Shown here piece by piece: positions 24,038 to 33,538 of a DNA stretch of 64,000 bases. The DNA comes from Ilumatobacteraceae bacterium (GTDB lineage: Bacteria > Actinomycetota > Acidimicrobiia > Acidimicrobiales > Ilumatobacteraceae). Position numbers and translations under genes: made by a program. Where the stretch lies: contig JBBANL010000009.1 of NCBI GenBank assembly GCA_040401975.1, positions 8,257 to 72,256 on the forward strand, written 5' to 3'. How positions within the stretch are numbered: position 1 is the first letter of the stretch; every line of letters starts with the position of its first letter. The notes under the pieces are model-generated. The model was not told the origin of the DNA. It made no database searches and saw only the letters and a program-made list of their open reading frames with translations.

Positions 24038-25402
24038 ATGCAGTACGTCTCGACGCGCGGAGCGGCGCCCGTGCTCGGTTTTTCCGATGTGGTGCTGGCG
24101 GGCCTGGCAACCGACGGCGGTCTCTATGTTCCCGAGGCATGGCCCCCGGCCCGCGCATCGACCGGCGGCTCGTACGCATCGCTGGCCGCATCGGTGTTCG
24201 AGCCATATCTCGACTCGACCGTCACGCCGGGTGTCATGGCGCGACTGTGCGACGAGGCGTATTCGACGTTCCGGCATCCCGACGTGGTGCCGATGGTCGA
24301 TCTCGAACCGGGGCACCAGCTCATGGAGCTCTTTCACGGGCCGACCCTTGCGTTCAAGGATGTCGCCCTGCAGCTGCTCGGTCGGTTGTTCGATCACATT
24401 CTCACCGAGCGGAACGAAAAGGTCACGATCGTGGGGGCGACGAGCGGCGACACCGGCAGTGCGGCCATCGACGGGGTGAAGAACTGCGCCAGTGTCGACA
24501 TCGTGATTCTGTATCCCAAAGGTCGCGTGAGCGACGTGCAACGTCGCCAGATGACAACCGTCGATTCGCCGAACGTGCGCACCGTGGCAATCGACGGCAC
24601 GTTCGACGACTGCCAGGATCTCGTGAAGGCGATGTTCAACGACGCACCGTTCCGCGAGCGCAACAACCTCTCTGCGGTCAACAGCATCAACTGGGCGCGT
24701 GTGATGGCCCAGGTGGTGTACTACTTCGAGATTGCGCGGCGGGTCGACGGTCCCTTCGATGTCACGGTGCCGACCGGCAACTTCGGAAACGTGCTCAGCG
24801 GGTGGATCGCACAGCAGATGGGCGCGCCGGTGCGCCATCTCGTGGTGGCCTCGAACGAGAACGACATTCTGACGAGGTTCTTCGAGTCGCTCGCCATGAA
24901 CGTGACGGGTGTGCATCCCACGTTGAGCCCCAGCATGGACATCCAGGTGTCGTCGAACTTCGAACGATTGCTGTTCGAGATGAACGGTCGCGACGGAGGG
25001 CTCACGGCGGAGCAACTGAGCGTCTTTCGCGACAAGGGTGTCCTGTCGGTGGAGGCAGACCAGTACCAGCAATGGATCGCCCCGACCTTCCGTGCATCAC
25101 GGGCCACCGACCATGACACGTTGGCGACCATTCGCTCGGTGCACGAGTCGACGGGAATGTTGATCGACCCGCACACGGCTGTCGGTGTCAAGGCGGCCCG
25201 GGAGCATCTCGAACCCGGAGTTCCGATGATCACACTGGCCACGGCGCATCCGGCGAAGTTCCCCGACGCCGTGGAACGTGCCACGGGGGTGAGGCCGTCG
25301 CTGCCGGAGCACCTGGCGGACCTGTTCGACCGCGCCGAGCGGACCACGGACCTGCCGAACGACCTCGCCGCAGTCGAGGCTTTCGTCGAATCACGCCGCT
25401 AG
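24038..25402 (+). CDS. thrC: Threonine synthase
   Basis: 454 aa. The PTLAFKD PLP-lysine motif is present. Confidence 0.95.
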   Translation: MQYVSTRGAAPVLGFSDVVLAGLATDGGLYVPEAWPPARASTGGSYASLAASVFEPYLDSTVTPGVMARLCDEAYSTFRHPDVVPMVDLEPGHQLMELFHGPTLAFKDVALQLLGRLFDHILTERNEKVTIVGATSGDTGSAAIDGVKNCASVDIVILYPKGRVSDVQRRQMTTVDSPNVRTVAIDGTFDDCQDLVKAMFNDAPFRERNNLSAVNSINWARVMAQVVYYFEIARRVDGPFDVTVPTGNFGNVLSGWIAQQMGAPVRHLVVASNENDILTRFFESLAMNVTGVHPTLSPSMDIQVSSNFERLLFEMNGRDGGLTAEQLSVFRDKGVLSVEADQYQQWIAPTFRASRATDHDTLATIRSVHESTGMLIDPHTAVGVKAAREHLEPGVPMITLATAHPAKFPDAVERATGVRPSLPEHLADLFDRAERTTDLPNDLAAVEAFVESRR

Positions 25403-25432
25403 GCAGCCTGACGGGTCAATCAACTGTCGGTC

Positions 25433-25603
25433 TCACTCTGACGAGTCGTCATCGGTGGTCGTCGTCGGTGCCGGTCTGAAACCCCGGAGAAGTTGCGTGA
25501 CGAATTCACGCTTCTCGTCGTCGGACATCGTCCAGTAGGACTTCTCGATCGCGACAACCTTGATTGGCTCGTTGGAGTCTTTGTGTTCGGTGGAATCAGA
25601 CAT
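25433..25603 (-). CDS. 56-aa acidic mini-ORF (below the ORF-track size cut-off)
   Basis: Hand translation: MSDSTEHKDSNEPIKVVAIEKSYWTMSDDEKREFVTQLLRGFRPAPTTTTDDDSSE. Its ATG directly follows the TGA of the upstream phosphatase gene (TGAATG). Confidence 0.4.
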   Translation of the reverse strand: MSDSTEHKDSNEPIKVVAIEKSYWTMSDDEKREFVTQLLRGFRPAPTTTTDDDSSE

Positions 25604-26242
25604 TCAGCGACCGTTGATCGAGCTGATGACCCAGTATGCGTCGAGTGGGTTGCGTGCGAACCACCGCACAACCTCGTCGACCGCCTCACTCATCTCGTCG
25701 TAATTGCCGCCGTTGCGCGCCACCCACCATGCAGCGGCATCGGGCGCATACACGGTCGCCGCGATCGGGCGGGCCTGACGGATCGCGCGAAGCGCCGGAA
25801 GGGAATCCCACCCGCGGGTTCGCAGAATCGCGTAGGTCGCGGATGGTCCGCGGTTGCATCCGACCCAACATGTGACCATGAGGACTGCCCCCGGGGTCTC
25901 TTCGATCTCGCGTGCCTTTTCCGCGATGGCATCGAACCAGCGCGGGTCGCGACGGCCGAGATCGTCGTTGACGCCGATGTGATGAACTCGGATGTTCGAG
26001 TTGGCCTCGATGAATTCCTTCTCGCGGAATTCGAGATGCACCGGCATGTAGTCGGTGATGCCTTCAGCTTCCCAGCGGGCGAGTTGTTCACGTGCGATGT
26101 CGTGCTGTGGCGAGATTCCGCCGCTCATCGCGAGAGTGGGAGTCACGAAGCAGACCTCGCGCCACCAGAACATGGGGTCGAGGGGTCGCTGCGGAAGGTC
26201 GAGGGAATGAAGGGGAATGTCATTTATTGTCATGTTGACCAT
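25604..26242 (-). CDS. Dual-specificity/PTP-like phosphatase (CX5R P-loop)
   Basis: Trimmed to ATG 26242 (MVNMTINDIPL; alternative 26233). VLMVTCWVGCNRGPS contains C-x5-R, with an upstream GVNDDLGR candidate acid loop. Confidence 0.55.
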   Translation of the reverse strand: MVNMTINDIPLHSLDLPQRPLDPMFWWREVCFVTPTLAMSGGISPQHDIAREQLARWEAEGITDYMPVHLEFREKEFIEANSNIRVHHIGVNDDLGRRDPRWFDAIAEKAREIEETPGAVLMVTCWVGCNRGPSATYAILRTRGWDSLPALRAIRQARPIAATVYAPDAAAWWVARNGGNYDEMSEAVDEVVRWFARNPLDAYWVISSINGR

Positions 26243-26280
26243 TATGCCAAGGGGGTGTGTCGGGATTCCCGGAGCAGGCG

Positions 26281-26775
26281 TCAGCGGCACCACGGCGGTG
26301 ACGCCACCACGAAATCGAGAGTTGCAGAACAGGGGCGCAGCCCGCGGGTTTGCAATTCGGCCCAGATGTCGGCCAGTTCGCCGAGTCGAAGCGCGTCGCA
26401 GATGCGCGCGGCCTCGCCGAACAGGGTGATCGACGACCGGAACTTTCTCGCGTCGATGCCGCCGAGCACCTTCTTCAGTTCGTCGTACGCCGGCTCGTTC
26501 TGTGGCAGGTGCGAGAGAACGAGGCGACAGCACTCGACGTAGCGGTCGCGGAGGGTGGGATGTGTCAGATAATCGACCACTTCACTCATCGACCTGACTC
26601 CGAACTCGATTGCCATCTCGGAACTGCCGAGCCCCGAGATTTGAGGGAAGACGTACCACATCCAATGAGTCCGTTTGCGACCGACACGAAGCTCTGCAAG
26701 CGCATCGGGAAAGGTGTCACGCTGGTGCGTCGGGTGATTGCCCTGCTGGGTCAGAAGAAATCGTTCAACGGTCAT
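26281..26775 (-). CDS. DUF1810 family protein
   Basis: Trimmed to ATG 26775 (MTVERFLLTQ...), overlapping the upstream stop by 4 nt. GRKRTHWMWYVFPQISGLG and KFRSSITLF segments match the DUF1810 pattern as recalled. Confidence 0.65.
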   Translation of the reverse strand: MTVERFLLTQQGNHPTHQRDTFPDALAELRVGRKRTHWMWYVFPQISGLGSSEMAIEFGVRSMSEVVDYLTHPTLRDRYVECCRLVLSHLPQNEPAYDELKKVLGGIDARKFRSSITLFGEAARICDALRLGELADIWAELQTRGLRPCSATLDFVVASPPWCR

Positions 26776-27443
26776 TGTCCCTCCTCCGGAAACATCTCGT
26801 TGACGGCCTTTTCGAAACGTTCGAAGAGATCGCGGGTGCCGGGTGGGTACCCCTTCTTGTCGAACGCGGCGAGAAGTCCGCGGTACCACATGCGTTGGTG
26901 GTCGTATCCGACGTTGAACTTGGCCCACACGGTGTGTTCTTCTCCCGGCGATTTGCGCAGATCTGCCACCGTGTTTTCTGCGTTGTAGGTCTTGTCCGCC
27001 AGGGAGACCAACAGCGATTCGTCAGTAGCGGGCTTCGACGCAATCTTGTCGATGTAGGGCTTCTTCCGCGCTTCCCACCAGTGCTCGGCTTTCTGCTCAG
27101 CGGTCCAGTTCTCCTCGCGGGCCTGTTCCTTGTATTCCTGCTTTTTGGCGAACGTCGTGTCGGTGCAGCCCCACACGATGTCTGTGATGGCCGGGCCGAC
27201 TCGGAACTTGAGGATGTTGCGTTTGGTGGGAGTGTCCTCCAACAAGTCGTGCAAGAGTGCGCCGATGGTTTGTCTCTTGGATCCGCCTGCCTCGATCACG
27301 AGCGACGCGACTCCGAGAAGGTGGCCGAGATAGGGGATGTTGCTGCCTTTGCGAACCTCGTTTTCGTGACCTTTACCGGCGATGCGAATCGCTCGATAGA
27401 AGTTCTCGGTTGGTTTCCACAGGGGTTCTGTGTTGTGTGTCAT
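26772..27443 (-). CDS. HD-domain protein of the RelA/SpoT-hydrolase type (small-alarmone-hydrolase-like)
   Basis: 223 aa. YLGHLLGVASLV...ALLHDLLEDT and SLADKTYNAENT resemble the SpoT hydrolase HD motifs. Strong AAGGAG Shine-Dalgarno before ATG 27443. Confidence 0.65.
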   Translation of the reverse strand: MTHNTEPLWKPTENFYRAIRIAGKGHENEVRKGSNIPYLGHLLGVASLVIEAGGSKRQTIGALLHDLLEDTPTKRNILKFRVGPAITDIVWGCTDTTFAKKQEYKEQAREENWTAEQKAEHWWEARKKPYIDKIASKPATDESLLVSLADKTYNAENTVADLRKSPGEEHTVWAKFNVGYDHQRMWYRGLLAAFDKKGYPPGTRDLFERFEKAVNEMFPEEGQ

Positions 27444-27497
27444 GTGTGGCTCCTTTCTGAAGAGATCCGAAGAAAGAGTCGTGCCACGCAGCGAAGG

Positions 27498-27662
27498 TCA
27501 CGCGCCGCCACTCCCGGCGGCGCCGAGCACCGCCGCGATGATGATGACCCATCCGATGATCACGATCGGGAACACGATGGTGAGTGCGGCCAGAGCGAAG
27601 CACCAGAACGTGATCGCAAAAGTCCAGCCGATGCATCCGCCGCCGAATCGACTCGGTGTCAT
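27498..27662 (-). CDS. 54-aa predicted two-helix membrane mini-ORF (not in track)
   Basis: Hand translation: MTPSRFGGGCIGWTFAITFWCFALAALTIVFPIVIIGWVIIIAAVLGAAGSGGA. The Shine-Dalgarno is weak. Confidence 0.3.
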   Translation of the reverse strand: MTPSRFGGGCIGWTFAITFWCFALAALTIVFPIVIIGWVIIIAAVLGAAGSGGA

Positions 27663-27716
27663 GCGGGGAATCTCTTCATGTCTTTCACACTTTCAGCGTA
27701 CGGAACGGGTGTGTCG

Positions 27717-28151
27717 TCACGTGGTGGGGCAATTGTCGCTCACGAAGTTGTTGAAACGGGTTGATGCATCTACGACACCTTCTCGTTGGTTGATTGCGTC
27801 GAATTCCCTTCGGAGTTCCTCGTTCTTTGCAATTTCCACGAGGTCATAGTCGTGTGCGTCGAACAGGGCGTTTGTGTCGATCACGGATGAGACCAGAAGC
27901 GCCACATCGTCCTTGATCTCGTCGGGGCTCGTATCGCGCAGCTGCCGGGCATACGTTGCCGCCTTTGTCCACGTGTCTCGCATGATGTCCGGATCCGTGA
28001 TGGCAGCCGGATCCTCTCCGTGGGGCCCTGCAGCCGCGGATTCCATGCTTGCGGCAACGGAGCAGAATTCGGTGTAGTCGGCCGACGGAGCACCGGACGA
28101 GCAGGCAACCAGAGCCGGCACCAGCGCAATGAGAACGGCGAGCCGTCTCAC
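27717..28151 (-). CDS. Putative lipoprotein
   Basis: VRRLAVLIALVPALVAC lipobox. The start is set at GTG 28151, which overlaps the TGA of the upstream mini-ORF (GTGA). The track start is 28175. Confidence 0.6.
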   Translation of the reverse strand: MRRLAVLIALVPALVACSSGAPSADYTEFCSVAASMESAAAGPHGEDPAAITDPDIMRDTWTKAATYARQLRDTSPDEIKDDVALLVSSVIDTNALFDAHDYDLVEIAKNEELRREFDAINQREGVVDASTRFNNFVSDNCPTT

Positions 28152-28294
28152 TTCATGCCCAGGATTTTTCCCCACTTCTGTCGCCGTCCGGCCCGGGTGA
28201 GGGGAATGCCGGTCTTGCGCGAGATCTTGCGCTTGGCGGCGGTGATGCCGAGTGCGCGCTTCCAGGAGAATGTGAGTCCGGGTCCGAGTTTCAT
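28148..28294 (-). CDS. 48-aa highly basic mini-ORF (not in track)
   Basis: Hand translation: MKLGPGLTFSWKRALGITAAKRKISRKTGIPLTRAGRRQKWGKILGMK. Its stop is coupled to the lipoprotein GTG. Confidence 0.35.
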   Translation of the reverse strand: MKLGPGLTFSWKRALGITAAKRKISRKTGIPLTRAGRRQKWGKILGMK

Positions 28295-28350
28295 GGCCTG
28301 ACCGTATCAGTCGGTGCTTCGGTCGGTGCGGTGTCTGCGCCTGCGGCGGG

Positions 28351-28378
28351 TTCTGATCAGAAGCGATAATGGTAGAGT
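28351..28378. promoter_or_regulatory. Perfect 12-bp palindrome TTCTGATCAGAA overlapping a candidate promoter (TTCTGA-16 nt-TAGAGT)
   Basis: Read directly. It lies in the divergent region between the mini-ORFs at 28294 (minus) and 28412 (plus). GATAAT is also present at 28365. Confidence 0.35.
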
Positions 28379-28411
28379 GTACCCTAAACAGATGCGAGAA
28401 GGTGAACTCAC

Positions 28412-28621
28412 GTGGGAATTCTGAAGTGGTACGTCGTGTACCGGGTGGCGACCCGGGGGCGCAGGAGACGAAAGGCCGAAGCGCGGGCCAGGGAGACCCT
28501 CCAGACGGTCTTCGAGATCGCCGAGGACGACTCTGACGAGGCGCTCTTTGAGTTCTGTGACGAGTGCGGCGAGATTCTCGGCGACCATCTCATCGATGGA
28601 GAAGAGCTGGTGTGTCCCTGA
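28412..28621 (+). CDS. 69-aa ORF with a basic N-terminus, acidic centre and three C-terminal Cys
   Basis: GTG start preceded by GAAGGTGA. VGILKWYVVYRVATRGRRRRKAEARA...FCDECGEILGDHLIDGEELVCP. Coding status is uncertain. Confidence 0.35.
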   Translation: MGILKWYVVYRVATRGRRRRKAEARARETLQTVFEIAEDDSDEALFEFCDECGEILGDHLIDGEELVCP

Positions 28622-28629
28622 AACCCCTT

Positions 28630-28691
28630 GCAGTCAACAAGTTGTTTCACGCAATTGACTGCGAATCGCAGAAAATTGAAATTTTTATAAT
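28630..28691. promoter_or_regulatory. Nested palindromes plus a consensus TATAAT in an AT-rich spacer
   Basis: GCAGTCAA (28630)/TTGACTGC (28655), CAACAAGTTG (28635) and CTGCGAATCGCAG (28659), with TATAAT at 28686. A hand count of 28621..28720 gives about 43% GC. Confidence 0.4.
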
Positions 28692-28722
28692 GCCGCGAAG
28701 TACCCAACCAAAGGAGTCCCGA

Positions 28723-29385
28723 ATGACCCGAAATCTGCCCGAATACGTGATGAACGACAGGTGGGCGCGCCTCAGAGCCCTCTCGTTCGAGATCGACTTC
28801 CACTCCGAAATCGACCAACGACTGAATCGCGCCCGGAGCCCGATCGACAGTTTGATGTTTCCTTTCCACATGGCGATCGGTGCGGCCGGACTCGTGCGGC
28901 CATTCGACTGGACCACATGGGAAGCGCCGATGTTGACCATCGAGATGGTGCCGAACCTGAACGACGAGATGGCACGCAAGCACATGACCCGCATCGTGCG
29001 CGCCGACCGTTTCAACGAGGGGGTCTTCGATTCGTATGCACGCTCCGGGGTTCTGACCGCGCTCGCACGTCATCTTTACGAATTGCGACAGACGGAGAAC
29101 GGGTGGCCGACCGACTTTGCGGTGAACCCGGACGGTTCGGTGGAATCCGGCATCGCATTGGTGGCAGGTCGCGGTGTGATTCGTGGGCTCACCAACGGCC
29201 GTCGTTATCGGTGTCCCGAGTGCAGAGGCGGCTGGAGTCTCGAGTGCGAATTGCGGGGCGGTCATGTCGTGAGGGTGTGCTCGCGGGATTGGCATTTTCT
29301 CGCCGACCGCCGGGAGGTTCGCGTGTTGAATCCGAGTCCGCTGCAGCAGGTGTTCAGGAAGCCGCGGCCCAGCGTGCGATCGTGA
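28723..29385 (+). CDS. DUF6508-like domain protein with a C-terminal Cys-cluster (zinc-ribbon-like) extension
   Basis: ATG 28723 lies 7 nt after AAAGGAG. FDWTTWEAP...KHMTRIVRADRFNEGVFDSYARSGVLTALARHLYEL matches the recalled DUF6508 pattern. The C-terminus is RYRCPECRGGWSLECELRGGHVVRVC. Confidence 0.5.
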   Translation: MTRNLPEYVMNDRWARLRALSFEIDFHSEIDQRLNRARSPIDSLMFPFHMAIGAAGLVRPFDWTTWEAPMLTIEMVPNLNDEMARKHMTRIVRADRFNEGVFDSYARSGVLTALARHLYELRQTENGWPTDFAVNPDGSVESGIALVAGRGVIRGLTNGRRYRCPECRGGWSLECELRGGHVVRVCSRDWHFLADRREVRVLNPSPLQQVFRKPRPSVRS

Positions 29386-30253
29386 GGCGGTGCCACGCGA
29401 CGACATCGTCGATTGTGTAGCGACCCCAGGTGTAGCCGCCCGCGAGACCGAAAATCGCCGGGGTGTCACCGATGAAGGTGCGGACCAGACGTTCGCGGAT
29501 CCGCAGGTCGCTCTCTGAGACTCCGCTGTTGCGGACATCGACACCCGCGTTGTAGGCGATGAAGTCGAACTTCTCCAGCGTCGATGCGTAGTCGAGCGCC
29601 TTCTCCACCGCCTTGCGGTAGCCGTCGGGGGACACTATGTCGAGTCGGCTGTCGCCTTCGGGTTGCCATGTGTCGAATGCCGACACCGTGACGTCGACCT
29701 GCACGACGTCGCTGTCGAACTTGCGGCTGATGATGTCCCATGTTCCGCCTCCCGCGTGTGCGTCGAGGTCGAGGCAGAGAATCCGACCGGCTCCGAGTTG
29801 TCGTGCCGCATGGATCGCAGCGGCAAGACCGTTGAACGTGCAGTACCCGGCACCGCGATCGTGTGCTGCATGGTGCATGCCCGAACTGAGGCTGCCCGAG
29901 CAGCGGTTGTTGGTGAGCGCATCGTGGGTCGCCGCAATCATTCCCGCGACGTGAGCACGTGCCATGACGTAGATGCCGGGGTCCCACGAGAACGAGCTCG
30001 TCTGCGCGAGCTGTCGCGGCTTTCCTGTTCTGACAGCCGTCACGTATTTCTCGGAATGAATCCATGCAATGACCTCCTCGGCCAGTTCGTAGAGAACAGA
30101 CGGATCGGAGATCGCGACGGGGGAGATGGGGTCATCAATGAGCGACTGTGCGATGTCGATCGCCTTGCGCGTGGTGTCGAATTCGTAGTTGCTGGCGCCG
30201 TAATCGGCATTGTGGAAGATGCGAAGTATGGAACGGACAAGTTGGTTCTGCAT
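29354..30253 (-). CDS. Small histone-deacetylase-family (arginase/deacetylase fold) amidohydrolase
   Basis: Trimmed to ATG 30253 (MQNQLVRSIL...) behind GAAGGAGA. SGMHHA...GYCTFNG, DLDAHAGGGT, YNAGVD and GGY motifs correspond to the HDAC metal and catalytic residues. Confidence 0.7.
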   Translation of the reverse strand: MQNQLVRSILRIFHNADYGASNYEFDTTRKAIDIAQSLIDDPISPVAISDPSVLYELAEEVIAWIHSEKYVTAVRTGKPRQLAQTSSFSWDPGIYVMARAHVAGMIAATHDALTNNRCSGSLSSGMHHAAHDRGAGYCTFNGLAAAIHAARQLGAGRILCLDLDAHAGGGTWDIISRKFDSDVVQVDVTVSAFDTWQPEGDSRLDIVSPDGYRKAVEKALDYASTLEKFDFIAYNAGVDVRNSGVSESDLRIRERLVRTFIGDTPAIFGLAGGYTWGRYTIDDVVAWHRLTIARWAAAS

Positions 30254-30358
30254 GGGTCTCCTTCTGGTTGGGGGGAAGCAAGTGTGACAAGTCCCTGTGT
30301 CAATATTTGTAGAAGCGACACTAAATAGGGTCGGCACTGAGACGTCCGAAGTGGCGCT

Positions 30359-30384
30359 CGTGGACGGCGGGAGATTCGTCCACG
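30359..30384 (+). promoter_or_regulatory. Hairpin in the rho 5' leader (CGTGGACG-10 nt-CGTCCACG)
   Basis: Perfect 8-bp inverted repeat read directly, about 170 nt upstream of the rho ATG. Confidence 0.35.
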
Positions 30385-30552
30385 GTCGTTGCCAAATCGG
30401 GCGATCGGGGCTAAGGTGAGGGTCGCTCGGTTGTCCGAGTTCTCCCCGCCCTCGTTGAGGGGGGTCGAGATTCCCCAATGCGTTCAGCGCTCCGGTGCAT
30501 GGCGCACAGCCCCTCATTCGGTCACGAAAAGACCGCAGGAAAGCAGGAAATC

Positions 30553-32277
30553 ATGGCTGCAGAAGCCCTTGAGAAGTCCGCACTCGAGTCCAAGGACAAG
30601 GACCAGTTGATGGCAATCGCCGATGCACTCGGCGTGAAGGCCCCCGCACGCGCCACGAAAGCGGTGCTGGTCGAGAAGATTCTCGAAAAGACCGGAGTCG
30701 GTGCGGCACCGGCGAAGGCAAAGCCCGCAAAGCGCGACGAGAACGTCGACGCCGAAAAGGCCGACGACGCCGGCGCCGATGAGTCTTCCCAGAAGAAGTC
30801 GAGCGAGCCGATCGTGTACCTCGGCGACGACGGTGAGCCGCTCGCGGAGTGGGAGATCGAACTCGCACAGCACGAGGGTCGACTCGACAAGTTGAAGACG
30901 GCCGGCGGCGGTCAGCGCAACGATCGCGGCGACCGCGGACCACGCCAACAGGGCCAGGGTCAGAACCAGCAGCGCCAGCAGGGTCAGCGCCAGCAAGGTC
31001 AGCAAGGTCAGCAAGGTGGCGACTGGGACGAAGGCGGACGCAACAGCCGTCGCCGTCGCCGTCGCGGACGCAACGGTCGCGACGAAGGTCCGCAGGGCGA
31101 CGATCGCTACGACAGCGGCGACCAGAGCGAGCCGGTCAACATGGATCCCGTCAAGGTCGAGGGCTATCTCGACCTTCGCGATGAGGGATACGGCTTCCTT
31201 CGCGTCGGCGGGTACCAGCCGACTCGCAACGACGCCTACATCCCCGTGAAACTCACGCGTCAGTTCGGTCTGCGCAAGGGTGACCACGTCACCGGAATGT
31301 CGCGACCTGCCGGTCGCAACGAGAAGAACCCGGCGATGCTCGAGATCCACACGGTGAACGGCCAGGACCCGGAGAAGTCGAAGAACCGCCCGCGTTTCGA
31401 GGATCTCACGCCGCTGTTCCCCGACCACAAGTTGCGCATGGAAGACCCGCGCGACCCCACCAACATGACCGCGCGCATCATCGACCTGATCGCGCCCATC
31501 GGCAAGGGTCAGCGCGGTCTCATCGTGTCGCCGCCGAAGGCGGGCAAGACCACCGTGATGAAGACCATCGCGTCGTCGATCGAGAAGAACAATCCCGAGG
31601 TGAAGTTGATCGTGTTGTTGATCGACGAACGCCCCGAGGAAGTCACCGACATGCGTCGCACGGTTCGCGGCGAGGTCATTGCGTCGACGTTCGATCGTCC
31701 GTCCGATGAGCACACGCACATCGCCGAGATGACCATCGAGAAAGCCAAGCGCATGGTCGAGATGGGCGAGGACGTCGTCATCATCCTCGACGGAATCACG
31801 CGACTGTCACGCGCCTACAACCTCGCTGCTCCCGCGAGCGGCCGCATCATGTCGGGTGGTATCGACGCCGGTGCGCTGTACCCGCCGAAGAAATTCTTCG
31901 GTGCGGCGCGCAACGTGGAAGAAGGCGGGTCGCTCACGATTCTTGCGACCGCTCTCGTCGAGACCAACAGCCGCATGGACGAGGCCATCTTCGAAGAGTT
32001 CAAGGGAACAGGCAACATGGAACTGCGCCTCGACCGACGCATTGCCGAGCGCCGCGTGTTCCCGGCCATCGACGTCGATGCCTCGAGCACGCGCCACGAG
32101 GAACTGCTCTTCGAGCGCAAGCAACTGCAACTGGTGTGGAAGCTGCGCCGGGTGCTGAGCGGGCTTGCCCAGGACGGCAACCCCGCTCCGGGCCTGGAAA
32201 TGCTGATGGACCGCCTGAAGACCTTCGGCACCAACGACGAGTTCCTGGCCGAGATCGCAAAGACGCCGGGCGCCTAG
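30553..32277 (+). CDS. rho: Transcription termination factor Rho with an actinobacterial-type N-terminal insertion
   Basis: Trimmed to ATG 30553 ([28 protein letters not shown]). [12 protein letters not shown] Walker A motif. Q/G/R-rich insert. Confidence 0.95.
30991..31017 (+). repeat. Three perfect tandem copies of CAGCAAGGT inside rho
   Basis: Read directly. It encodes part of [23 protein letters not shown]. Confidence 0.9.
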
Positions 32278-32548: not shown

Positions 32549-33538
32549 TTGTCCGCCGACGCCGAGCGTCGGTCTCGACTTCTGTCGCTCAAGTTGCGCG
32601 CACTCGTGCGCGGGCACCTGGGTCTCGAGTCAGAACCCGAGGGAACTCCCGAGGTTTTCGCCCTCGGTGCCGCATTCGTCACGAATCACGATGTCTGGAT
32701 CTTGATCGACGGAGACGCGTCACGTTCGCTCGGGCCGTCTCTTGCGTGGTCGTCGAGATTCGACCGACCCGTTCATCTCCTCGTCGAACGCGATTCGGGA
32801 ATCGTCGCCCGTCGTGCGTCGTTGTTCTCGTTGTCGGTGAACGTGTGGCACGTGAACGAAACTTCGTTGTTGCCCGCGGTTGCAGAACCACATCTTCCGT
32901 TCGTCGACGCTCCCGATTCGCACGCGGCACTGATGCCCGTCATCGCCGCCGCCGGAGCCGATGCGGTTGTCGAGCACGGCGTTGTCGTCGGAGAGGTGAG
33001 GGGCCTCGAGATGTGCAGGGTTGTCGACGACGCGACAACCGGCGCCGCACGTCTCGAAGTGGGCATGGGTGCGAACGATCGCGAGGCGTTTGCGATGGTG
33101 CACGGCGACACTCCGACCGAAGAGGCGATGCGCACGGTCATCGAAGCAGTCGCACGGCACCGCGAGCCGGGTGCGATGGTGCACCCGTTCAATCAGTTCG
33201 GTGCAGAACGTCTCCATCGTTGGAACGCGCTGCAGAATCCGTCGAGTGTCGGGTTCGTCTCGCTCGCGCCCGCCGACCCGCCAGTGAAACGCACGAACCT
33301 CAAGGATGCGGTTCCGTGCGTCGCCACGGGAACAACCGTCGGCGGTGACAGGGCTGTCGCGGTGTTCGTCAACGGAATCGATCTCGAAGTGGTTGCATTC
33401 GCGGCCGACGCGGCGGACATGCACGGTTGCGGTCACGTCGTGATCGTCGCGCGACCGCGCGACATCACCGTTTCCCTGCGGAATCTGGCCGCCGCGTGCG
33501 TGATTCCGACGGCCTTCGTCGACATCGACGCGACGTAG
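32549..33538 (+). CDS. Hypothetical protein, 329 aa
   Basis: Track ORF with a TTG start immediately after the rpmE stop. I recognise no family. Confidence 0.5.
   Translation: MSADAERRSRLLSLKLRALVRGHLGLESEPEGTPEVFALGAAFVTNHDVWILIDGDASRSLGPSLAWSSRFDRPVHLLVERDSGIVARRASLFSLSVNVWHVNETSLLPAVAEPHLPFVDAPDSHAALMPVIAAAGADAVVEHGVVVGEVRGLEMCRVVDDATTGAARLEVGMGANDREAFAMVHGDTPTEEAMRTVIEAVARHREPGAMVHPFNQFGAERLHRWNALQNPSSVGFVSLAPADPPVKRTNLKDAVPCVATGTTVGGDRAVAVFVNGIDLEVVAFAADAADMHGCGHVVIVARPRDITVSLRNLAAACVIPTAFVDIDAT

Follow-up and report, generated by a model that had tools for sequence, protein, structure and literature searches.

The interval between thrC and rho in an Ilumatobacteraceae genome is probably a permissive hotspot of gene turnover, in a genus of freshwater Acidimicrobiia, that houses an old accessory enzyme operon and is not a mobile element. 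It was studied in a 64,000-nt stretch of contig JBBANL010000009.1 (assembly GCA_040401975.1), referred to below as the window, in which 5.15 kb, here called the slot, separate the stop of the threonine synthase gene thrC (25402) from the start of rho (30553). An initial annotation, made from the DNA letters, had described the slot as an island of ten open reading frames (ORFs) occupying the place where the homoserine kinase gene thrB normally lies. Reading from thrC to rho, these are a candidate acidic ORF of 56 aa (mini56) and the genes for a CX5R phosphatase, a DUF1810 protein, an HD-domain protein, a membrane mini-protein (mem54), a lipoprotein, a basic mini-protein (mini48), a 69-aa product (orf69), a DUF6508 protein and a histone deacetylase (HDAC)-like zinc deacylase. 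The structural and evolutionary account of the slot is put forward with high confidence; the idea that its enzymes might cooperate to remove regulatory marks, which draws on analogy, is tentative.

The focal genome (code G000) is a metagenome-assembled genome (MAG) of 2.02 Mb in 34 contigs. Genes were placed in the slot by combining a frame plot of GC content at third codon positions (GC3) with ORF lists and a Pfam scan. The genus was surveyed by a DNA search and a concatenated-protein search across 41 genomes, followed by tblastn against the slot loci, and a maximum-likelihood tree was built from hom and thrC only, both of which flank the slot. Synonymous divergence (dS) and the ratio of nonsynonymous to synonymous divergence (dN/dS) were computed against the closest species, G052. 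Beyond the genus, 80 other families of the order were sampled by a single genome each.

Comparison of synteny bore out the idea of a variable insertion zone. In the sister genus, represented by a complete genome (G053), thrC and rho are separated by a gap of 144 bp, no island gene is present and thrB lies 450 kb away. Among congeners the slot holds anything from the lipoprotein gene alone, at a size of about 0.5 kb, to the full set, and the largest slots exceed 6.5 kb; at least 12 architectures were counted. Practically all congeners whose interval is intact have the lipoprotein gene between thrC and rho, and most have mini48 there too. The former is the sole occupant in G001, G006, G042, G003 and G051, is accompanied only by mini48 in G008, G041, G016, G005, G050 and G043, and by mini48 and the deacylase gene in G017. 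A contiguous single-strand operon, deacylase-mini48-lipoprotein-HD-(DUF1810)-phosphatase, occurs in L069, L070 and G044, from which the orf69-DUF6508 cassette is absent. The full ten-gene-type layout is seen in G000, G052, G002 and L074, and the same layout without HD and DUF1810 in G011 and L065.

By parsimony on the hom+thrC tree, the minimum number of changes is five each for the phosphatase and the deacylase, nine for HD, two for DUF6508 and four each for mini48 and a HEC-07-like gene described below, which amounts to at least 29 gains or losses over these six traits. In G003, G041 and G046 the cargo differs at less than 1% flank divergence. Many metagenome assemblies break within the slot region; this is no more than suggestive of population heterogeneity, as a rough estimate of chance breaks from contig counts already comes too close to the number observed. 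The initial annotation had also considered a simple lineage rearrangement, in which close relatives would carry the same genes with thrB nearby: the nearest species indeed share these genes, but thrB is not close to them and more distant congeners differ.

Further cargo occurs in other species. A protein of ~525 aa resembling the HEC-07/NsnC candidate defence proteins of PADLOC is encoded on the strand of rho, just 5' of its leader, in G009, G033, G044 and G046, four species from three clades; it matches the models over partial length only, has no Pfam match and was not found in the focal genome. An acidic family of ~170 aa (G052, G034, G039, G037 and G049), likewise without a Pfam match and absent from the focal genome, lies between HD and DUF1810 or beside thrC, and a sigma-like 360-aa protein and a TPR protein were also seen. 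With fixed core flanks, cargo that varies among close relatives and, at times, a candidate defence gene, the slot resembles the flexible or metagenomic islands of pangenomes. It differs from them in being very small (0.15-7 kb), in having no tRNA, integrase or repeats, and in that most of what it carries belongs to a single recurring enzyme operon, subject to erosion and relocation, as opposed to unrelated cassettes.

The gene set is old within the genus and eroding, and is not a recent acquisition. The dS values are 0.7-1.3 for island genes and 0.6-0.9 for the flanks, and two separated clades show the complete layout, one of 11 members around G000 and the other the basal L074/G048 clade; the island is therefore not recent foreign DNA. 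Across the 80 other families the genes are patchy (phosphatase in three, this deacylase subfamily in two, mini48 in three) and none is present in the sister genus, so the module was probably gained at the base of the genus.

As had been noted from the letters, the island has no integrase, transposase or flanking repeat: Pfam, NCBIfam and PADLOC gave no integrase, transposase or recombinase domain in any island ORF, and the repeat search returned only short, chance-level repeats, none of them att-like. An Rfam scan of positions 25000-31000 (E ≤ 1) gave no RNA family, and thus no tRNA target. The accompanying remark that there is no clear GC shift needs some correction, as the shift is small yet real (60.1% GC against 62.7 ± 2.1% for the genome, the 7th percentile of genome windows); the tetranucleotide distance of the island lies at the 86th percentile of the genome, which is mild compared with outliers on contigs C3 and C15. 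The strongest tetranucleotide and GC outlier in the genome is C3:85000-100000, at 49-51% GC against 62.7%. The region C15:27500-34200 (L059), at 51% GC, encodes a second HDAC-like paralogue, which shares 38% identity with that of the island, along with a DUF6308 protein and a helicase of the Schlafen-group-3 type (PF09848). The gene upstream of this paralogue was considered as a divergent phosphatase and rejected, being a molybdopterin oxidoreductase.

The interpretation of the slot as the place of thrB is largely an artefact of the reference frame, since "normal" there applies to a Mycobacterium-type reference only. That reference is the hom-thrC-thrB-rho cluster of Actinomycetia, for example M. 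tuberculosis Rv1294-Rv1297. The focal genome has the order lysA-hom-thrC...rho-rpmE-prfA in common with that cluster, and Pfam confirmed each of these flanking genes; in the focal genus, the sister genus and G028, however, no thrB stands between thrC and rho. In G028 about 0.8 kb separates thrC from rho and thrB is 1 Mb distant, and in the congener G002 thrB and thrC are 335 kb apart on one contig. It holds that the window contains no homoserine kinase, but the gene is neither missing nor displaced: the genome's only thrB, encoding a GHMP ThrB of 274 aa, is at C6:103081-103902, directly 3' of trpD. As thrB is remote also where the island is absent (sister genus, G028), the island did not displace it.

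Seven sampled families of the order carry at this position ThrB2, a non-orthologous homoserine kinase (PMC9026213). An ApgM-like protein is encoded after thrC in the families G021, G023, G026 and G030, with scores of 417-431 bits on TIGR02535 ("proposed homoserine kinase"), just short of the cut-off of 446; one of the two scanned passes the NF003242 cut-off. ThrB2 is additionally found near thrC in G079, G110 and G115. The arrangement is thrC-ThrB2-rho in G021, G030 and G110, while in G023 and G026 ThrB2 immediately follows thrC, and in G079 and G115 it is downstream of that gene. GHMP thrB is absent from exactly G021, G023, G026 and G030, the four ThrB2 families screened for it, and the two kinases are perfectly complementary in 12 outgroup families. 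By excluding GHMP thrB and adjoining thrC, the ThrB2 of these outgroup Acidimicrobiia resembles that of gut Bacteroidetes (B. thetaiotaomicron BT2402, PMC9026213); unlike in the outgroups, no ThrB2 was found in the focal genome. Given the remote thrB of the focal genus, the sister genus and G028, and ThrB2 in other families, where thrB sits has nothing to do with the island. Next to ThrB2, thrC appears to be spread over two or three frames in two outgroup assemblies, G026 (L023/L028/L029) and G110 (C1:1323598-1325145); these split genes could be sequencing frameshifts or pseudogenes.

All ten ORFs between thrC and rho were recovered from the GC3 plot, the ORF lists and Pfam (Table 1). Against G052, dN/dS is 0.012-0.26 for all island genes tested, the 48-, 54- and 69-aa ORFs included, and the island ORFs with a G052 counterpart are therefore real genes. 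Nine of the ten are backed by purifying selection or family support. The exception is the 56-aa ORF, which has no DNA or protein match in 40 congeners and for which the GC3 frame is the sole support; in G052 and G002 the phosphatase stop is only ~15 bp from the thrC stop.

Table 1 Features of the thrC-rho slot and its anchors (window positions) and, in the last two rows, cargo of congeneric slots (locus:positions)
Feature	Position	Strand	Evidence or remark
thrC (threonine synthase), left anchor	24038-25402	+	Pfam Thr_synth_N, PALP, THR4_C
Acidic 56-aa ORF (mini56)	25433-25603	-	GC3 frame and junction sequence; unconfirmed gene
CX5R phosphatase	25604-26233	-	Weak Pfam DSPc match
DUF1810 protein (Rv1873 family)	26281-26775	-	Pfam PF08837
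HD_4 protein, putative small alarmone hydrolase type	26772-27443	-	Pfam HD_4, TIGR00691 N-terminal part
54-aa membrane mini-protein (mem54)	27498-27662	-	Hydrophobic translation
Lipoprotein	27717-28151	-	Lipobox read from sequence
48-aa basic mini-protein (mini48)	28148-28294	-	Codon-periodic conservation
69-aa ORF (orf69)	28412-28621	+	Conserved in congeners
AT-rich spacer with TATAAT and AAAGGAG, 5' of DUF6508 start	28622-28722	+	Sequence read
DUF6508 protein	28723-29385	+	Pfam PF20118
HDAC-family Zn-deacylase, 299 aa	29354-30253	-	Pfam Hist_deacetyl
rho leader / divergent promoter region	30254-30552	+	Part from 30384 on conserved across genus
rho, right anchor	30553-32277	+	Pfam Rho_RNA_bind, ATP-synt_ab
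HEC-07/NsnC-like ORFs	L046:1808-3382, L048:2058-3629, L049:1907-3490, L047:3719-5293	rho strand	PADLOC E 8e-12
Acidic ~170-aa family	L055:5520-6092, L056:700-1233, L050:69-599, L054:264-767, L053:88-675		Five congeners

Three junctions of the minus strand, all read from the DNA itself, are tight: mini48 and the lipoprotein gene overlap at GTGA, HD and DUF1810 overlap at ATGA, and the phosphatase gene abuts the 56-aa ORF as TGA-ATG in the same frame, all of which indicates translational coupling. The deacylase and DUF6508 genes overlap convergently by 32 bp at their 3' ends, and the former is divergent from rho. A promoter scan of the interval gave no full sigma-70 consensus site; a promoter role of the TATAAT/AAAGGAG spacer 5' of DUF6508 is inferred only from its letters. 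The terminator-like matches of the same scan fall within genes and were disregarded. The rho leader together with the first rho codons (30384-30717, ~330 bp) retains 73-86% DNA identity in most congeners, irrespective of the gene upstream, and has no Rfam match. A 329-aa ORF after rpmE (32549-33538) was not recognised as any family; Pfam-less ORFs of like size take the same place downstream of rho in two outgroup families (L042:10254-11249 and L044:10363-11361), and size and position suggest a gene conserved order-wide.

The core of the slot consists of small or non-enzymatic products. The signal peptide of the lipoprotein reads MRRLAVLIALVPALVAC; the gene has a dN/dS of 0.16 and its product no match in Pfam, NCBIfam or PADLOC. 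The slot's most conserved gene is mini48, with 75-98% identity across the genus, a dN/dS of 0.012 and codon-periodic conservation in a five-species DNA alignment; it too lacks a Pfam, NCBIfam or PADLOC match. A conserved block of 160 bp here was considered as an RNA and rejected, as it has no Rfam match and the alignment shows the coding 48-aa ORF. In conservation mini48 exceeds thrC and rho, being 98% identical to the G052 copy (thrC identity among congeners is 75-91%). The mem54 gene is 55-88% conserved in at least seven congeners, with a dN/dS of 0.10. The product of orf69 has a basic N-terminus and an acidic, Cys-containing C-terminus; the gene is always paired with the DUF6508 gene and is conserved at 38-83% in G052, G002, G009, G011, G033, G032 and L074 (dN/dS 0.13).

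The labels that the initial annotation had given to the larger products (HD, DUF1810, CX5R phosphatase, DUF6508 and HDAC-like) were each supported by family matches in Pfam, PDB or Foldseek searches. The phosphatase has a P-loop of the form C-x-x-G-x-N-R-G-P-S, and C122, G125, N127, R128 and D90 are invariant in 77 homologues. The top Foldseek matches of its AlphaFold model (predicted local distance difference test, pLDDT, 93.8) were Tk-PTP, DUSP18, DUSP22, VHR and PTPMT1, at E ~1e-7. As modelled, it is a Cys-based enzyme with an atypical dual-specificity phosphatase (DSP; VH1/DUSP) fold and a C-terminal helical extension. The fold, the C-x5-R P-loop and an upstream Asp are shared with the atypical dual-specificity phosphatases (VH1, VHR, DUSP18/22/23, PTPMT1 and archaeal Tk-PTP), from which the island protein differs in being only about 15-20% identical and in its extra C-terminal helical extension of ~50 aa.

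The deacylase matches Hist_deacetyl of Pfam (7e-21), and its best PDB match is 9gkv (VcHdaH, cluster 5b; 8e-15). When the two are aligned, the HH pair, the D-x-H and D zinc ligands and GGY are all kept (GLAGGY in the translation). By the best PDB match and its SGxHH motif, the enzyme appears nearest to cluster 5 (VcHdaH/HDAC11-like). VcHdaH, a member of cluster 5b, is described as a monomer that acts on longer acyl chains and is classed with human HDAC11 (PMC11532494). The island enzyme is like the cluster-5 Zn-deacylases VcHdaH and human HDAC11 in its length of ~300 aa, in having S-G-x-HH instead of RPP, and in GGY and the Zn ligands. It differs in that Ala replaces the second His of D-x-H-H, in that the sequence match reaches only 8e-15, and in its consistent pairing with a DSP-fold phosphatase, of which the available text of PMC11532494 makes no mention.

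The HD protein matches HD_4 of Pfam (2e-13) and, in the PDB, 7qoe (1.6e-20), 7qoc and Mesh1. It carries H41, H64-D65 and E68-D69 (HDxxED) and an ADK motif, has no synthetase domain, and its gene is preceded by the ribosome-binding site AAAGGAG. It is predicted to be a hydrolase-only RelA/SpoT homologue of the small alarmone hydrolase type. Like those enzymes (7qoe, 7qoc and metazoan Mesh1) it has a single HD_4 domain of ~200 aa with HDxxED and no synthetase; it differs from them in its operon setting with a phosphatase, a deacylase and DUF1810. When the island proteins were searched against PADLOC and NCBIfam, the RelA/SpoT N-terminal match of the HD protein was the only one, and PADLOC gave none.

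The DUF1810 protein is securely assigned by PF08837 (E 2.5e-34, 118.5 bits against a cut-off of 25) and by PDB 2jek (Rv1873, E 7e-20); the literature on DUF1810 yielded no more than two passing mentions. The DUF6508 protein matches PF20118 (3e-10, 40.4 bits against a cut-off of 23.6) and is modelled with an N-terminal helical DUF6508 domain and a C-terminal Cys-rich beta domain (AlphaFold pLDDT 91). This model gave no significant fold match in the PDB, and a word-indexed homologue search returned close relatives only, none of them named.

The co-occurrence of island genes in other genomes, proposed as a check in the initial annotation, was found repeatedly around phosphatase loci. These loci were collected by an alignment-based profile search of a species-representative genome collection, 80 of 181 being analysed, and their neighbours by iterative hidden Markov model searches on stop-to-stop ORFs; in the loci examined, the phosphatase family occurs so far only in Acidimicrobiia-type MAGs. 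The deacylase gene is within 300 bp of the phosphatase gene in 22 of the 80 loci, mostly immediately downstream on the same strand, the isolate IMCC26207 included, and is present at 28 of the 46 loci having at least 1.5 kb on both sides. Several orientations of the pair exist, and it extends to distant lineages whose copies are 32-39% identical, IMCC26207 among them. In G008, G041, G046, G045 and G039, whose slots lack both genes, a pair abutting stop to start lies at a second locus. Of the 80 families sampled, the two with the deacylase each have the phosphatase gene at a distance of 3-6 kb; as a genome of this size holds one or two such deacylase genes, the chance of finding one within 6 kb of a given gene is about 1%. 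The phosphatase-deacylase core is thus a reproducible, so far undescribed gene pair.

Other island families recur beside it. Five loci, among them the distant L128 and L129, have DUF1810 directly upstream of the phosphatase gene; in L109, L115 and L127 the deacylase and phosphatase genes are separated by HD; a distant MAG of 71% GC (L120) has a DUF6508 gene directly 3' of the phosphatase gene; and in G060 a mini48 homologue is 630 bp downstream of the phosphatase homologue. In IMCC26207 (L093, 4244-10105) the pair is flanked by genes for a NERD-domain UvrD-like helicase and a GGDEF-EAL protein.

These observations suggest the following scheme. The slot lies between two housekeeping units, probably transcribed independently, and has as its core pair the 48-aa basic protein coupled to the lipoprotein. 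The ancestral cargo may have been the minus-strand operon that many species carry, driven from the rho-leader region and divergent from rho, in the order HDAC-like deacylase, mini48, lipoprotein, (mem54), small alarmone hydrolase, (DUF1810), phosphatase. Later insertion of the opposite-strand orf69-DUF6508 cassette between deacylase and mini48 in the focal clade would have given the ten-ORF layout, and genes have been lost, relocated and added repeatedly, presumably by homologous recombination through the thrC and rho flanks and not by site-specific integration. The enzymes might form a cytoplasmic "eraser" module, in which alarmones of the (p)ppGpp type would be removed by the HD protein, acyl-lysine marks by the HDAC11-like enzyme and phospho-protein marks by the DSP-fold enzyme. 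Such a module would be suited to resetting the state of the cell after starvation or stress.

Several points weigh against this explanation or parts of it. Most relatives are fragmented MAGs, and several slot architectures were read from such assemblies. If recombination carries the slot and its flanks together, event counts on the hom+thrC tree are biased. The polarity of the switch between ThrB2 and GHMP ThrB can be resolved only with a rooted species tree, and the operon structure is deduced from gene order and junctions. The proposed eraser module draws on family-level analogy and gene neighbourhood: the substrate of the phosphatase may be protein, lipid or nucleotide, and that of the deacylase protein lysine or a small molecule. 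No role can be assigned to DUF1810, DUF6508, mini48 or the lipoprotein, and a lipoprotein and a membrane mini-protein amid cytoplasmic enzymes are not explained by the idea of a reset.

A recent horizontal island, inserted at the thrB position and displacing thrB, would account for a GC content 2.6 points under the genome mean and for the absence of the genes from the sister genus and most families. It is largely refuted and very improbable: thrB is remote in the island-free sister genus and G028, island dS equals flank dS, the complete layout is shared by two clades that lie apart in the genus, tetranucleotide usage does not leave the range of the genome (86th percentile), and there are no mobility genes or repeats. 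A tolerant intergenic site might instead have gathered an unrelated collection of genes, whose co-localisation reflects the shared ancestry of one lineage and not joint function. The widely differing architectures, the loss of genes singly and the persistence of the lipoprotein and mini48 without enzymes in many species would fit such a collection, as would the incomplete independence of the neighbourhoods, given that related freshwater Acidimicrobiia supply most of the phosphatase loci. It is nevertheless unlikely, as the phosphatase-deacylase pair stays adjacent after relocation (G008, G041, G046, G045, G039) and reaches distant lineages (32-39% identity) and several orientations, both deacylase genomes of the 80-family sample have the phosphatase within 6 kb, and DUF1810, DUF6508, HD and mini48 each recur near phosphatase genes of other genera.

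Antitoxins of toxic alarmone synthetases are known among the small alarmone hydrolases, and the slot could be read as a conflict or defence islet, its enzymes acting as an undescribed counter-modification or immunity system in a defence-type hotspot and reversing marks set by toxins or phage, for instance (p)ppApp or ppGpp and the acylation and phosphorylation of proteins. Fast turnover of gene content fits a defence hotspot, as do the HEC-07/NsnC-like candidate in the slots of four congeners, the small acidic, immunity-like proteins in the operon of some species and the rarity and patchiness of the genes in the order. The HDAC-like paralogue on C15 stands beside the Schlafen-type helicase and DUF6308 in an island of 51% GC, and the IMCC26207 pair adjoins a NERD-helicase gene. 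However, PADLOC matches none of the focal island's proteins, the island has no toxin-like partner (alarmone synthetase, acyltransferase or kinase), its genes show ordinary purifying selection and co-divergence with the flanks, and the defence-like neighbours are anecdotal; a defence role is accordingly judged improbable. A more speculative extension, to which little probability is given, is that phosphatase and deacylase form the core of an undescribed, evolutionarily mobile "mark-erasing" system of freshwater Acidimicrobiia, serving conflict or exit from dormancy, with the slot as its preferred landing site. If so, the small alarmone hydrolase, DUF1810, DUF6508 and the 48-aa protein would join the core in varying combinations, and a role in conflict would mean counter-defence, or immunity against modifying toxins or phage.

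On the reading of the slot as a turnover hotspot with an old enzyme operon, it offers a compact, integrase-free example in which turnover can be traced over dozens of species. Six families reproducibly co-localise, a DSP-fold phosphatase and an HDAC11-like deacylase as a tight pair together with the putative small alarmone hydrolase, DUF1810, DUF6508 and the 48-aa protein. This gives DUF1810/Rv1873 and DUF6508 a first testable functional context, for which the cultured isolate IMCC26207 is an experimental entry point. For the class as a whole, the lack of thrB beside thrC in Acidimicrobiia does not mean gene loss or displacement by an island, since two mutually exclusive homoserine kinases occur in it. 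Taking this into account in the metabolic reconstruction of abundant uncultured lake bacteria avoids scoring them falsely as threonine auxotrophs.

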